Shown piece by piece: positions 49,775 through 54,214 of a DNA stretch of 64,000 nucleotides; the first letter of the stretch is position 1; the number at the start of each line of letters is the position of its first letter. The stretch covers positions 5,312,001 through 5,376,000 of the forward strand of contig OZ241986.1 of NCBI GenBank assembly GCA_965204375.1, written 5' to 3'. Under the pieces are notes generated by a model, which was not told where the DNA came from, ran no database searches, and saw nothing but the letters and a program-made list of their open reading frames with translations. The DNA comes from Candidatus Latescibacterota bacterium. GTDB lineage: Bacteria; Latescibacterota; UBA2968. Made by a program: the position numbers and the translations under genes.

Positions 49775-50836
49775 ATGCAAATTCACACGTATCAACCCGC
49801 ACATCTCCACGCGCTTACGAGATGTTTGTTTGAAGCATCTGGTGCGACACCCGATATTGCAGATATTGTCGCGAAGATTCTGGTGAATGCCAATCTCGCC
49901 GGTCACGATTCTCACGGTGTTCTCCGCATCCCTTTGTATCTCACTAATATCTCCGAGGGGGGGATGAATCCGGCGGCTGAACCGACTACGGTGCGGGAAT
50001 CAGCCACTACACTGGTTCTGGATGGCAACCGGGGAGTGGGGCATCTTACGGCTTATCGCGCAGTCCACCAGGCGATGGAAAAAGCGCGAACTTCTGAAAT
50101 TTGTTCGGTTTCTTTCACGCGGGTTGCACATATTGGGCGGCTGGGAGAATATGTCGAGATTGCCGCGCGCGCGGGGTTTATCGGTATTTGCATGGTTGGT
50201 GGGGGTTCGCCCAATACGATGAAAGTTCTGCCTTTTGGAGGGAAGAAAGGGAGTCTGGGTACCAATCCCATTGCGGTGGGGGTTCCCACGGGCGACGATG
50301 CGCCTTTTGTAATCGATTTTGCCACTGCCATGGTCGCCGAGGGCAAACTCCAGGTTGCGCGAAGCAAGAATGCGTCGATTCCCGATACTTTTATTGTGGA
50401 TAAGAATAACAATCCGTCAACCAATCCCCTCGATTTTTACGATGGCGGATTTTTGCGTGCTTTTGGTGAGCACAAGGGCTACGCGCTTTCGCTGCTGGTC
50501 TGTTTGATGGGGCTGCTTTCGGGGGCTCAAAGGGAGGGCCGGCGTTCTGGGGGTGCGTTTATGCAGGTTATCGATATCAGTACATTTACAGACCTGGATA
50601 GTTATCAACAGGATATTCGCGCATTTTTAGATGCGATGAAGACGACCGAATCCGCCGATGGGATAGACGAGGTTCTGGTTCCCGGGGATTTTGAGTACCG
50701 CAATCGCAAGCATCGCCTCAAACACGGCATTGAAATACCCGATACGATTAACGAGCAAATTGGCGAATGGGCAGACCGCCTCAAAGTGCCTGTGGATGAT
50801 GGTATTGTGGAGGATGAGGATAGGGCGCATTATTGA
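49775..50836 (+). CDS. Ldh_2 family (malate/L-lactate/ureidoglycolate-type) oxidoreductase
   Basis: GHDSHG, HIGRLG, GTNPI, HKGYAL. Confidence 0.9.
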   Translation: MQIHTYQPAHLHALTRCLFEASGATPDIADIVAKILVNANLAGHDSHGVLRIPLYLTNISEGGMNPAAEPTTVRESATTLVLDGNRGVGHLTAYRAVHQAMEKARTSEICSVSFTRVAHIGRLGEYVEIAARAGFIGICMVGGGSPNTMKVLPFGGKKGSLGTNPIAVGVPTGDDAPFVIDFATAMVAEGKLQVARSKNASIPDTFIVDKNNNPSTNPLDFYDGGFLRAFGEHKGYALSLLVCLMGLLSGAQREGRRSGGAFMQVIDISTFTDLDSYQQDIRAFLDAMKTTESADGIDEVLVPGDFEYRNRKHRLKHGIEIPDTINEQIGEWADRLKVPVDDGIVEDEDRAHY

Positions 50837-50911
50837 TCGCGGATGAAACGGATTAAAGGATGACGCGGATTAAAGGCGAAGGGCTGGGGGCTGGGGGTTG
50901 GTCTTTGAAAT

Positions 50912-50951
50912 AAAAAAGGGGTGAAACCGATTGATGGTTTCACCCCTTTTT
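50912..50951. terminator. Bidirectional intrinsic terminator
   Basis: AAAAAAGGGGTGAAACC ... GGTTTCACCCCTTTTT. Confidence 0.85.
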
Positions 50952-50963
50952 GCGTTGCGACGC

Positions 50964-52142
50964 TCAATCCGCCGCGTCGCTGTGATCCATGGAGCAGAAT
51001 GCCTGATAGTCCATGAGTTCGGTGATGGTCGGATTGTCGCCGCATACAGGACAATTTTTGTCGCGGCGAATTTTGAATGTGTTGAAGTTCATTTGCAGGG
51101 CGTCGTACATCAGCAAGCGACCGATGAGTGGATCCCCTTGACCGAGTATGAGTTTGACAACTTCTGTGGCCTGCACGAGGCCAACTGTGCCGGGTAATAC
51201 GCCCAGCACGCCTGCTTCGTCTCACGACGGTGCCAGGTCCGCTGGCGGTGGCGCGGGGTAGAGGCAGCGGTAGCAAGGCCCCTCACCGTCGCACGTGTAC
51301 ACCGTGACCTGACCTTCAAAGCGGAAGATGCTGCCATCCACGATGGGTTTTTTTAAGAAGACACACGCATCGTTGACCAGGTAGCGCGTTGGAAAGTTGT
51401 CGCATCCGTTGACGATGATATCGTATTGGGGGAGGATGTCCATGATGTTGTCGGATGTGAGATAGTCGGTGTGTGGCACCACATCGCAACCGGGATTGAT
51501 TTCTTTGAGGGTCTCGTACGCCGAGATGGCTTTGAGACGACCCAGGTCAGATGTGCCGTGCAGTATCTGGCGTTGCAAGTTGGTGACATCGACGATGTCG
51601 GCATCGACGATCCCCAGTGTTCCAATGCCAGTCGCGGCGAGATAAAGTCCGGTTGGGCTGCCCAATCCGCCTGCGCCAATGAGGAGCACTTTGGCGTCGA
51701 GGAGTTTGCCCTGTCCGCGTTCTCCCACTTCGGGGATGAGGAGGTGACGGGAGTAGCGCTGTACTTCGGCTTTGTTGAGGGCGCGGTCCTGGTTGATGTC
51801 GAGACCGGCATTTTGCCAGGCGTCGATGTCGCCCTGTATATACGCGACGTCGGAATAGCCCATGTCTTGAAGGGCTTGTGCGGCCAATGCGCCCTGGCCC
51901 TGAGCACCATAGACTATGATTGCGCAGCTGCGGTCATTGTCCATGCTTTCTATGCGGAGTTCGAGAAAGCCGCGTGGCACGTTTTCTGCGCCGGGGATAT
52001 ATCCTTCGATATAATTTTCGCGCTCGCGCACGTCTATGAGCAGCGTGCCATTTGCGTGGATTTTCTCCTGTGCGCGTTCTGGAGAAAGTCCCGTGGTGCT
52101 GGCTTCTGCCCGTGCGACGAGCGTTTCATAAGTTGCACTCAT
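50964..52142 (-). CDS. moeB: Rhodanese-MoeB E1-like adenylyltransferase, probable selenoprotein (UGA at codon 307)
   Basis: RYSRH, GAGGLG, NLQRQ, PCYRC; APS-TGA-DEAGVLGVLPG continues in frame to CPVC and the stop at 50964. Confidence 0.85.
51187..51209 (-). promoter_or_regulatory. Putative bacterial SECIS hairpin
   Basis: 12 nt after the UGA: GUGCUGGG-CGUAUUA-CCCGGCAC, an 8-bp stem with GU at loop positions 2-3. Confidence 0.7.
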
Positions 52143-52226
52143 GGCATGCCTTTCGGGTTGGTGTTTGGGGTCATTTTTGACGGGATTTAATGTAAGGTAT
52201 TTTTTTTTATCCGCAAGCCCGAAAAG

Positions 52227-53036
52227 TTAGACAATTGTGATTTCGGGCAGGTCGCTTTCCCGTTCTGCCAATGCGTCGGTAATGCGCGTGGCGATTTCGG
52301 AAAATGCGAGGTTTTCACCTGTTGCGATGGGCGCACCCGTGTCGCCGCCTTCGCGAATATTGGGCTGGATGGGGATTTGTCCGAGCAGGGGCAGGCCAAA
52401 TGCATCGGCGATGTGTTGCCCCCCGCCTTCGCCAAAGAGGGGCGTGCGGTCTCCGCAACACGGGCACAGGAAATAGCTCATGTTTTCGACAATGCCGAGG
52501 ATGGGAACTTCGACTTTGCGAAACATTTCGATGCCGCGATGTACGTCTTCCAGAGCGACATTTTGCGGGGTGGTGACTATGACCGCACCGCTGAGTGGCA
52601 CGGTTTGGGCAAGGGTGAGTTGTGCGTCGCCCGTGCCGGGGGGGAGATCGACGACGAGGTAGTCGAGTGCGCCCCATATTACGTCAACCATGAATTGCTG
52701 TATCATTCTGCCCACGATGGGACCGCGCCATATTATGGGGGCATTTTCTCCGGCGATGAGGCCGAGAGACATGAATTTGACATTGTGATTTTCAAGGGGC
52801 AGTATTTTTTGGCCTATTGACCTGGGTTGCGCTGTGCTGCCCATCATGATCGGTACGTTGGGACCGTAAATATCCGCGTCGAGCAAGCCGACCGCTGCGC
52901 CCTGTTTGGCGAGTGAGACCGCGAGGTTTACGCTAACTGTTGTTTTGCCTACGCCGCCTTTGCAACTGGATACTGCGACGATGTTTTTGACTTCGGGTAA
53001 GATTTCGGGGCGTTGGGGTCGGTCTGGTGTTGGCAT
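52227..53036 (-). CDS. mrp: Mrp/NBP35 (ApbC) Fe-S carrier ATPase
   Basis: KGGVGKT, DADIYGP, DLPPGTGD, ENMS..CPCC. Confidence 0.92.
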   Translation of the reverse strand: MPTPDRPQRPEILPEVKNIVAVSSCKGGVGKTTVSVNLAVSLAKQGAAVGLLDADIYGPNVPIMMGSTAQPRSIGQKILPLENHNVKFMSLGLIAGENAPIIWRGPIVGRMIQQFMVDVIWGALDYLVVDLPPGTGDAQLTLAQTVPLSGAVIVTTPQNVALEDVHRGIEMFRKVEVPILGIVENMSYFLCPCCGDRTPLFGEGGGQHIADAFGLPLLGQIPIQPNIREGGDTGAPIATGENLAFSEIATRITDALAERESDLPEITIV

Positions 53037-53053: not shown

Positions 53054-54214
53054 TTAATAGTTCGGCGATATTTCGCGCAGGCGATTGACTTCTTGAATCA
53101 CGCGTTCTGCAACATAGTCAATTTCTGTTTCGGTGTTGAATCGGCCAATGCCAAAGCGTATGCTGCACTGCGCCATGTCATTGCTGACGCCAATGGCTTT
53201 GAGTACGTAGGATGGTTCGAGAGATGCGGATGTACACGCCGAGCCGGATGAGAGGGCCACGTCTCGCAAGCTCATGAGCAGGCTTTCGCCATCCACGCCG
53301 GCAAAGCTGATGTTGAGGTTGCCCGGCAGGCGTTGTTCGGGATGGCCGTTGAGTTGTATCTGGGGCAGCGCGTTGAAGAGGTGGTTTTGCAGGCGATGGC
53401 GCAAGTTCTCACTGTGTTTTGCTTCGGTTTCGATGTGTTTTTGTGCGAGCGCACAGGCTTCTCCCAGGCCCACAATGCCCGGTACATTGAGGGTGCCAGA
53501 GCGCATGCCTTTTTCATGGCCCCCGCCGTCTATTTGGCCGACGAGGCGAACGCGCGGACGGCTGCGCACATAGAGTGCGCCCGCGCCTTTGGGTCCGTAG
53601 AGTTTGTGGGCAGAGATGGAGAGGAGGTCGATGTGCATGGCTTCGACGTCGAGAGGGTACTTGCCTATGGCCTGTGCTGCATCTGTGTGGAAATAGATGT
53701 TTTTTCCCCGGCAAATCGCTCCGATTTCTTCAATGGCCTGGCAGGTGCCGATTTCGTTGTTGGCCGCCATGATAGAGACGAGTACGGTGCTGTCTGTGAT
53801 GGCGTTTGCAATATCTGATGGGTCGGTAATACCGTGTGAATCTACGGGTAAGATTGTGACTGAGACGCCGTCGCGTTCCAGGGCACGGCAAGAGTCGAGG
53901 ACGGCGTGGTGTTCGGTGGCTTGCGTGATGATGTGCGGAGTTTTGGCTGCGGCGACCACGCCTTTGATGGCGAGGTTGTCGGATTCTGTGGCGCCACTGG
54001 TAAAGACGATGTCTTTGGGCTGTGCGTTGATGAGGCTGGCTATTTGTTCCCGCGCCAGATCAACAGCATCTTCGGCATGCCACCCAAAGGTGTGTGTGCG
54101 ACTGGCGGCATTGCCAAATCGGTCTTTGAGATAGGGCAACATTGCGTTGAGCACCCGTTCATCTATGGGTGTGGTGGCGTTGTTGTCGAGATATATGGGC
54201 AGTTGGGTAGGCAT
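53054..54214 (-). CDS. iscS: Cysteine desulfurase
   Basis: [26 protein letters not shown]. Confidence 0.93.

Follow-up and report, generated by a model that had tools for sequence, protein, structure and literature searches.

A MoeB/ThiF-type adenylyltransferase predicted to carry selenocysteine at its catalytic cysteine position in a Latescibacterota bacterium

The genome of the Candidatus Latescibacterota bacterium in assembly GCA_965204375.1 is a single contig (OZ241986.1) of 6.34 Mb. The stretch analysed here, termed the window, comprises the 64,000 nt at positions 5,312,001-5,376,000 of this contig, and coordinates are those of the window unless the genome is named. On the minus strand of the window lies a gene of the MoeB/ThiF family whose frame contains an internal TGA. 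To judge from comparison with related sequences, this codon almost certainly encodes selenocysteine (Sec) at the position of the catalytic cysteine. The best explanation is that of one gene for a 392-residue selenoprotein, in which a catalytically dead N-terminal rhodanese domain is followed by a MoeB/ThiF-type (E1-like) adenylyltransferase and UGA is decoded as Sec, and this explanation is very probably correct. The features of the locus are collected in Table 1.

Table 1. Features of the rhodanese-MoeB locus and of its upstream neighbours, in window coordinates.
Feature	Position	Strand	Basis or remark
Predicted Sec-containing rhodanese-MoeB/ThiF adenylyltransferase, 392 codons	50967..52142	-	Open frame when TGA is read as U
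N-terminal rhodanese-homology domain, residues 20-112	51807..52085	-	Pfam PF00581, E 2.1e-16
Gly79, at the rhodanese active-site Cys position	51906-51908	-	
ThiF/MoeB adenylation domain, residues 130-366	51045..51755	-	Pfam PF00899, E 2.4e-81
In-frame UGA, codon 307, read as putative selenocysteine, at the crossover-loop catalytic Cys column	51222..51224	-	
Candidate bacterial SECIS hairpin	51187..51209	-	Predicted by fold; starts 12 nt after the UGA
Second conserved hairpin, 6 bp, UGGCCU-CGUGC-AGGCCA, directly after the first	51167..51183	-	Predicted by fold
Terminal stop TGA of the rhodanese-MoeB gene	50964-50966	-	
Intrinsic terminator, 16-bp hairpin (50913-50951) followed by a U-run	50903..50951	-	Fold
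Mrp/NUBPL-type iron-sulfur cluster carrier ATPase, upstream neighbour	52227..53036	-	Pfam PF10609, E 2.4e-98
Cysteine desulfurase of the NifS/IscS type (class-V aminotransferase), with which the sulfur cluster begins	53054..54214	-	Pfam PF00266, E 1.8e-86

Read from 52142 to 50967 with TGA as U, the minus-strand frame contains one internal TGA only, at codon 307, around which the translation runs ...PPPADLAPS-U-DEAGVLGVLPG...CPVC.... A preliminary description of this DNA, which gave no strand, had remarked that the track of open reading frames (ORFs) splits the gene while the frame continues beyond the TGA at 51222-51224, and this was borne out, down to the flanking residues. Translation table 11 divides the gene into an ORF of 306 amino acids (aa) at 51222-52142 and a GTG-started ORF of 81 aa in the same frame at 50964-51209. 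Misannotation by automated pipelines had also been anticipated. Indeed, the public protein collection contains both the 306-aa and the 81-aa product, from which it follows that public gene calls split the gene; some of the split products are named ‘ThiF family adenylyltransferase’ or ‘bacteriocin biosynthesis cyclodehydratase domain-containing protein’.

As in other bacterial selenoprotein genes, the in-frame UGA is aligned with Cys in homologues and is flanked by conserved sequence on both sides. The best matches in the genome itself and in 40 relatives comprise 21 with exactly one internal TGA, 19 that are stop-free and one fragment at a contig end. The 21 TGA-bearing matches stem from the genome itself, from 19 of the 20 genomes of the same genus and from one genome of another genus. 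Across 30 loci fetched from the order, the TGA always occupies the same alignment column (21 TGA versus nine TGC), and the codon-307 column is TGC in each of the nine stop-free orthologues. Among 79 loci from named public genomes, the 18 from Latescibacterota have TGA, and the other 61 have TGC (55) or TGT (six); these distant Cys homologues, mostly from Gaiellales/Thermoleophilia, are about 54% identical. An orthologue (threshold E <= 1e-80) was present in 119 genomes of a sample of 151 from the phylum. TGA was recorded in 24 rows and is a genuine internal TGA in 23 of them, and these 23 Sec-type genomes are confined to three genera of one family. The remaining genome (G111) was rejected, its TGA being the terminal stop and its column 307 a Cys. 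The position of the TGA at a Cys column, together with its conservation, is clearly more than chance. The preliminary description had placed the UGA of this MoeB at a conserved Cys and had proposed alternation of TGA with Cys codons among relatives as a check; the counts within the order and in all 61 distant homologues agree with it on both points.

The 85 codons after the TGA are under strong purifying selection, which means that translation proceeds past it. Across 136 pairs from 17 clade sequences of equal length, the mean nonsynonymous (dN) and synonymous (dS) divergences in this part are 0.0121 and 0.3172, respectively, giving a dN/dS of ~0.04; in the part before the TGA, the same pairs give a dN of 0.0280 and a dS of 0.3313. 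The downstream codons are in frame and stop-free in 21 of 21 clade sequences and hold the second of two CxxC pairs, which is invariant in all 30 orthologues. Beyond the second stop lies an intrinsic terminator, which begins 12 nt after it and folds at -29.3 kcal/mol (z = -5.93), with none of 200 shuffles folding as well. A simple terminator scan did not list a terminator after the MoeB gene, whereas direct folding reveals it. Since the terminator follows the second stop, and not the internal TGA, the transcription unit is built around the full-length frame.

These results bear on the simplest alternative, namely that the TGA is a true stop and that the gene is truncated, or a pseudogene, yielding a protein of 306 residues that lacks the 85 residues at the C-terminus. 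A 306-aa product is what table 11 and the public gene calls give, and TGA ordinarily serves as a stop here. Nevertheless, this alternative is very improbable: codons beyond a true stop would have to have remained free of stops in 21 clade sequences, with a dN/dS of ~0.04 at a dS of 0.32, to have kept the second CxxC of a zinc site unchanged in 30 of 30 orthologues and to have retained a terminator at their end. Moreover, 23 genomes from three genera preserve the TGA, and the gene is the sole one of MoeB/ThiF type in a genome that retains MoaD/MoaE and ThiS/ThiG. It is hardly credible that the gene is instead split, with a 306-aa protein and an 81-aa protein, the latter started at a GTG 12 nt after the TGA, assembling into the enzyme. 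A GTG-start ORF does exist at 51209, and 81-aa products are found in public collections, but the two parts always share one frame, with a single TGA at the Cys column between them (21 of 21 sequences), and the four codons that separate TGA from GTG (DEAG) are conserved as a family motif. Inspection by eye of the 37 nt that precede the GTG showed no Shine-Dalgarno-like run of purines, and a split would remove the catalytic residue.

The codon was also compared in contigs of four public runs, of which one (X1) is a likely source run, one (X4) is a DNA run from another study and two (X5 and X16) are metatranscriptome libraries. Contigs of all four runs cover 51222-51224 and differ from the window elsewhere, and none has another letter at the codon. 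TGC or TGT, which the preliminary description had named as the observation that would overturn its reading, is thus absent here from two DNA and two RNA-library runs, as represented by assembled contigs rather than raw reads. Contigs of 1367 nt and 352 nt from the RNA libraries span the TGA codon, but as they may stem from carried-over DNA, transcription is unproven, and this has to be set on the negative side of the balance. The region 50900-52200 recurs in public runs of 13 studies on corals and sponges, both metagenomic and metatranscriptomic. Strain variants in X4 and X5 have a one-base insertion and a one-base deletion, three bases apart, at window positions 51927-51930; the two cancel out in frame and alter one or two residues in the rhodanese domain.

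The machinery for Sec insertion, for which the preliminary description had recommended a search, is present in full. Profile searches of the genome recovered selA (580 bits), selB (389), selD (369) and tRNA-Sec (70), all four above the curated cut-offs. selA and selB lie side by side at 2,586,472-2,589,722 of the genome. selD (G000:C1:5302781-5303902 in genome coordinates) is found ~8-9 kb before the start of the window and is followed after ~100 nt by tRNA-Sec, which was confirmed by ARAGORN with the anticodon tca. selD has one in-frame TGA of its own, at the 11th codon of the translated stretch (...SCGG-TGA-ASK...). Among relatives, selA exceeds the cut-off in 40 of 41, the exception being a genome in 430 contigs with a completeness of 91%, and it is present in all five genomes of other phyla that have the TGA form. 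TGA also serves as an ordinary stop: it ends eight of the 17 Pfam-supported ORFs checked between 42 and 64 kb of the window, so that UGA has not been globally reassigned.

It is possible to imagine read-through of the UGA in which a residue other than Sec is inserted, always or part of the time: Cys or Trp, for example, might be delivered by a near-cognate or mis-charged tRNA, or UGA might be partially reassigned. Selection on the downstream codons indicates read-through only and is silent on the identity of the residue, and the hairpin that follows the UGA is not specific to Sec forms. Such decoding is nonetheless improbable in a bacterium with a complete Sec system, in which selD itself uses UGA, and the occurrence of UGA only at a Cys column is the classical signature of Sec. 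The presence of selA in five of five TGA-form genomes of other phyla and in 40 of 41 relatives points the same way, as does the use of TGA as the stop of eight of 17 checked genes. Alternation with Cys, the Sec machinery and the downstream selection together favour the 392-aa selenoprotein that the preliminary description had predicted.

The domain assignments agree with an enzyme of the MoeB/ThiF type. The match to PF00899 scores 272.8 bits and extends over profile positions 1-238 of 238, while NCBIfam NF006444 (PRK08762, ‘molybdopterin-synthase adenylyltransferase MoeB’) matches residues 5-385 with 515.2 bits against a cut-off of 449. The translation contains the nucleotide loop LIGAGGLG (GAGGLG). 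The CxxC pairs C290/C293 and C364/C367, both invariant in 30 of 30 orthologues, presumably form a zinc site, as is familiar from the family. A structural zinc site is described for Uba4 in PMC7527816.

The best matches among solved structures are Uba4 of Chaetomium (E 7e-60), E. coli ThiF and E. coli MoeB. Residue 307 is aligned with the Cys of CtUba4 ‘tsCgeagimg’, a position that is Lys in 6yuc and 6z6s. According to Pabis et al. 2020 (PMC7527816), Cys202 of Uba4 is located on the crossover loop and forms a thioester with Urm1, and a Lys mutant traps the complex. Thus, the UGA falls at the position of an E1-type catalytic cysteine. Residues 119-335 align with the adenylation domain of Uba4/MOCS3 (6yub, 6yuc, 6z6s), and the two proteins have in common a zinc CxxC pair and the combination of a rhodanese with an E1 domain. 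Uba4, in contrast, is eukaryotic, serves Urm1 and has a C-terminal active rhodanese and a Cys, whereas the rhodanese of the window protein is N-terminal and Cys-less and the catalytic residue is a predicted Sec. As a consequence of these differences, the persulfide relay from the rhodanese of Uba4 cannot run in the same way.

The E. coli enzymes provide a second comparison. Residues 122-370 align over the whole length of the 249-253-residue proteins in MoeB-MoaD (1jw9) and ThiF-ThiS (1zud, 1zfn), with E ~1e-53. E. coli MoeB and ThiF have no rhodanese domain and have Cys at the aligned position; the genome studied here has MoaD by MoaE and ThiS by ThiG. The Cys of ThiF reportedly forms an acyl-disulfide with ThiS. 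The aligned Cys of E. coli MoeB, on the other hand, was reportedly dispensable, and this counts against the present reading. As the role of the residue is not uniform in the family, the chemistry proposed below is an analogy with Uba4 and ThiF only.

The N-terminal domain lacks the active-site Cys that a catalytic rhodanese carries in the loop after the central beta-strand. It is Gly79, or an adjacent one-residue gap, that is aligned with this Cys of solved rhodaneses. Column 79 is Gly in all 28 unique rows from the Latescibacterota order and Cys in 60 Sec forms from other phyla, among the matches listed, and across 30 orthologues there is no conserved Cys in residues 1-118. Purifying selection nevertheless acts on the rhodanese domain (dN/dS 0.15). 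In the Actinomycetota-type homologues with the Cys form (L073-L133), 40 unique rows have Cys at column 79 and 19 have Ala; the latter indicate that the rhodanese Cys has been lost more than once in the MoeB subfamily with an N-terminal rhodanese.

A hairpin follows the UGA. Its stem of 8 bp is formed by GUGCUGGG (51202-51209) and CCCGGCAC (51187-51194) and encloses a loop of 7 nt, CGUAUUA, in agreement with the 8-bp hairpin with a GU-containing loop, 12 nt downstream, that had been noted before. For the bacterial selenocysteine insertion sequence (bSECIS), the published model as quoted in PMC13188914 has an apical loop of 3-9 nt with a G in its first two positions, an upper stem of 4-16 bp, a distance of 16-37 nt from the UGA to the apical loop and a minimum free energy <= -7.5 kcal/mol. 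In the hairpin, the second position of the 7-nt loop is a G, with a U after it, the stem has 8 bp, the apical loop lies 20 nt after the UGA and the fixed-hairpin dG is -14.4 kcal/mol. These values lie within all of the published constraints, as those of Cys forms and of synonymous recodings often do too. The perfect 8-bp stem is found in all 21 Sec forms of the clade, with a mean fixed-hairpin dG of -14.1, and in none of the nine Cys forms of the order, in which six or seven of the eight pairs form and the mean is -7.8. This difference between Sec and Cys stems within the order sits at synonymous sites (GUC/GUG and CCG/CCC). As read from the folds, the register of the hairpin is shifted by one base in other phyla. 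In the second hairpin (51167-51183), every cell of the 15 distinct rows is paired, and five of the six pairs are invariant.

A series of further tests weighs against the hairpin as a sign of Sec insertion. The 81-nt region folds at a z of only -1.61, and 11 of 200 shuffles are as good. The mean folding energy is -20.4 kcal/mol for 69 unique Cys forms versus -15.8 for 122 unique Sec forms, at a GC content of 0.73 versus 0.66, and a one-sided Mann-Whitney test of ‘Sec more stable than Cys’ gave p ~1.0. Synonymous resampling with each gene's own codon usage yielded mean z values near zero, -0.33 for Sec forms (n=120) and -0.67 for Cys forms (n=69); the gene in the window has a z of -1.15, with 11.5% of resamples reaching its stability. 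When the gene was recoded synonymously 5000 times, the same perfect 8-bp stem arose in 10% of cases and some perfect stem of at least 8 bp at SECIS distance in 15%. Within the clade, 99.1% of cells are paired, but 12 of the 15 pairs never vary and none of the 15 has changed on both sides; the covariation score is reached by 269 of 500 shuffles. An Rfam search found no family matching the SECIS region, and its only hits were three weak small RNA matches over the terminator.

As Cys forms and synonymous recodings fold comparably, the hairpin was rejected as independent proof of a SECIS element. The stem-loop is largely a by-product of the G-V-L-G-V-L-P-G codons, and because it is inherent in the coding of this motif and Cys forms fold too, it allows Sec insertion but does not prove it. 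The stem is compatible with recruitment of SelB and appears to be tuned in the Sec clade. Of the SECIS-like character claimed in the preliminary description, the agreement with the bSECIS rules has thus stood, while the hairpin carries less weight as evidence than was implied.

The MoeB gene is the last of a same-strand run consisting of ftsY, the cysteine desulfurase gene, the Mrp/NUBPL gene and MoeB. In the order, Mrp adjoins MoeB in 29 of 30 loci and the desulfurase is found in 25 of 30 (1.5-kb flanks), in Sec and Cys forms alike; in the Actinomycetota-type loci, Mrp and the desulfurase are beside MoeB in none of 61 (6-kb flanks). The genome contains four ORFs of the ThiS/MoaD family (PF02597) that end in Gly-Gly, one of them beside MoaE and one beside ThiG. 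The two extra carrier ORFs, L254 (G000:C1:597423-597683 in genome coordinates) and L257 (G000:C1:1983555-1983791), encode 91 and 88 aa and might act in pathways such as cysteine or tRNA thiolation; they too may be served by the Sec-MoeB. The window gene encodes the only MoeB/ThiF-type protein of the genome, the other three ThiF-domain matches being built differently. These three (L262-L264; G000:C1:728585-729274, 5619367-5619795 and 4049231-4049614) are proteins of 409-492 residues, free of internal stops and extended at the N-terminus by long additional regions. They are clearly distinct from MoeB/ThiF housekeeping enzymes and may belong, as E1-like components, to ubiquitin-like or defence systems.

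A mechanism can be proposed for the full-length selenoprotein. UGA codon 307 would be decoded by SelB with Sec-tRNA(Sec), and the hairpin with its apical loop 20 nt downstream may aid this decoding. By homology, the enzyme would adenylate the C-terminal Gly-Gly of MoaD, of ThiS and of the two further ThiS-like carriers. Sec307, on the mobile crossover loop, would then attack the acyl-adenylate or carry the sulfur of an incoming persulfide, in the manner of Cys202 in Uba4, and resolution of the intermediate would give the carrier thiocarboxylate on which molybdopterin and thiazole synthesis draw. As the rhodanese domain is without Cys, the sulfur would most likely come directly from the cysteine desulfurase encoded two genes upstream. 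Selenium in place of sulfur would speed nucleophilic attack and later release and make the residue harder to over-oxidise.

Two linked readings extend this proposal, one concerning a rhodanese-independent sulfur route and the other a latent SECIS; they are put forward tentatively, and that both are true is rather unlikely. The first starts from the loss of the rhodanese Cys in a domain that remains under selection, which would leave the crossover-loop Sec (or Cys) as the only catalytic chalcogen. The neighbouring desulfurase would then load the Sec directly as a selenenyl-persulfide, in a selenium-assisted route of thiocarboxylation distinct from the Uba4/MoeZ relay. According to the second, the conserved GVLGVLPG motif would pre-encode a SECIS, such that a Sec-using bacterium would be one TGC-to-TGA change away from a working Sec-MoeB. 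A latent SECIS would explain both the presence of Sec at one column in more than 10 phyla and its origin inside a Cys-form background in this order. More generally, replacement of the E1-type catalytic cysteine by Sec would amount to a natural experiment on the role of that residue in the activation of sulfur carriers, and a clade that pairs a dead rhodanese with Sec or Cys in close relatives would allow an unusually clean comparison of the two.

The Sec-MoeB family and the position of its Sec are already known, having been in print since 2005, as the preliminary description had recognised in part when it cited earlier reports of Sec-containing MoeB. Zhang, Fomenko & Gladyshev 2005 list 11 selenoprotein genes for a ‘Molybdopterin biosynthesis MoeB protein’ from the Sargasso Sea (PMC1088965), and the supplement prints ...CYRCLYSEPPPAALVPSuAVAGVLGVLPG.... 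The Sec of that sequence occupies the identical column to that of the window protein, ...CYRCLYPAPPPADLAPS-U-DEAGVLGVLPG.... The Global Ocean Sampling (GOS) study counted 19 Sec and 2,262 Cys MoeB sequences (PMC2398784), and the family appears in tables of two reviews (PMC9312934, PMC13188914). As far as these sources show, Sec-MoeB is still a predicted and experimentally uncharacterised family. The Sargasso proteins shown in the 2005 supplement resemble the window protein in having an E1-like adenylation domain with many Cys homologues, and in both cases the prediction was made by alignment of Cys with Sec and from a downstream stem-loop. They differ in having a C-terminal rhodanese with an active-site Cys (...IYLYCYKGQRS...), whereas the rhodanese of the window protein is N-terminal with Gly in that place; the host here is a member of the Latescibacterota from sponge and coral metagenomes, as opposed to the Sargasso Sea origin of the 2005 sequences. 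The window protein thus has the PS-U-x-x-AGVLG signature of Sec-MoeB and lacks a C-terminal catalytic rhodanese. Distinctive here are the Cys-less N-terminal rhodanese, the conserved desulfurase-Mrp-MoeB cluster and the recent switch from Cys to Sec among close relatives, together with a SECIS-like hairpin pre-encoded by a protein motif.

A degenerate DNA pattern, P-[ST]-UGA-x-[DE]-A-G-V-x-G, was scanned over one genome per species and matched at least 120 stretches. At least 118 of these are MoeB homologues with a stop at column 307 (118 of 120 among the matches listed), and the N-terminal rhodanese arrangement is found in 79 of 90 unique Sec rows, again among the matches listed. Going by record titles, the listed matches belong to Poribacteria, Rokubacteria/Methylomirabilota, Entotheonella, Syntrophaceae and other Thermodesulfobacteriota, Verrucomicrobia, SAR324, Nitrospinota, Actinomycetota, Chloroflexi, Planctomycetota and Latescibacterota, which places Sec-MoeB in more than 10 phyla among them. 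Many of the other carriers belong to lineages that are known to occur in sponges, Poribacteria and Entotheonella among them.

The history of the Sec column was traced in a FastTree phylogeny of 159 unique rows, for which the ThiF part was used and the Sec/Cys column was masked. In it, the 28 rows of the Latescibacterota order fall into one clade (support 100), and the 19 Sec rows among them into one sub-clade (support 95). Overall, the tree requires at least four changes between Sec and Cys, two of them forced by well-supported branches; such counts are indicative only, as the sample is biased, Sec rows having been collected with the pattern and Cys rows through their similarity. The window protein shares 70-74% identity with Cys orthologues from its own order and only ~50-55% with Sec forms from other phyla. 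As the former are closer, local conversion of TGC to TGA is more likely, on these identities, than the import of a foreign Sec gene.

The split annotation matters beyond this genome. Its sole enzyme of the MoeB/ThiF type, needed for the sulfur chemistry of both the molybdenum cofactor and thiamine, is recorded as two fragments. Metabolic reconstructions built on such records will wrongly score the step as broken in sponge- and coral-associated Latescibacterota, in many Poribacteria and Rokubacteria and in others.

A last observation concerns the region between the MoeB gene and the convergent Ldh_2 gene (49775-50836, plus strand). An 11-bp inverted repeat, perfect and GC-rich, occupies 50903-50951 with an A-run on one side and a T-run on the other, and it looks like a bidirectional intrinsic terminator.

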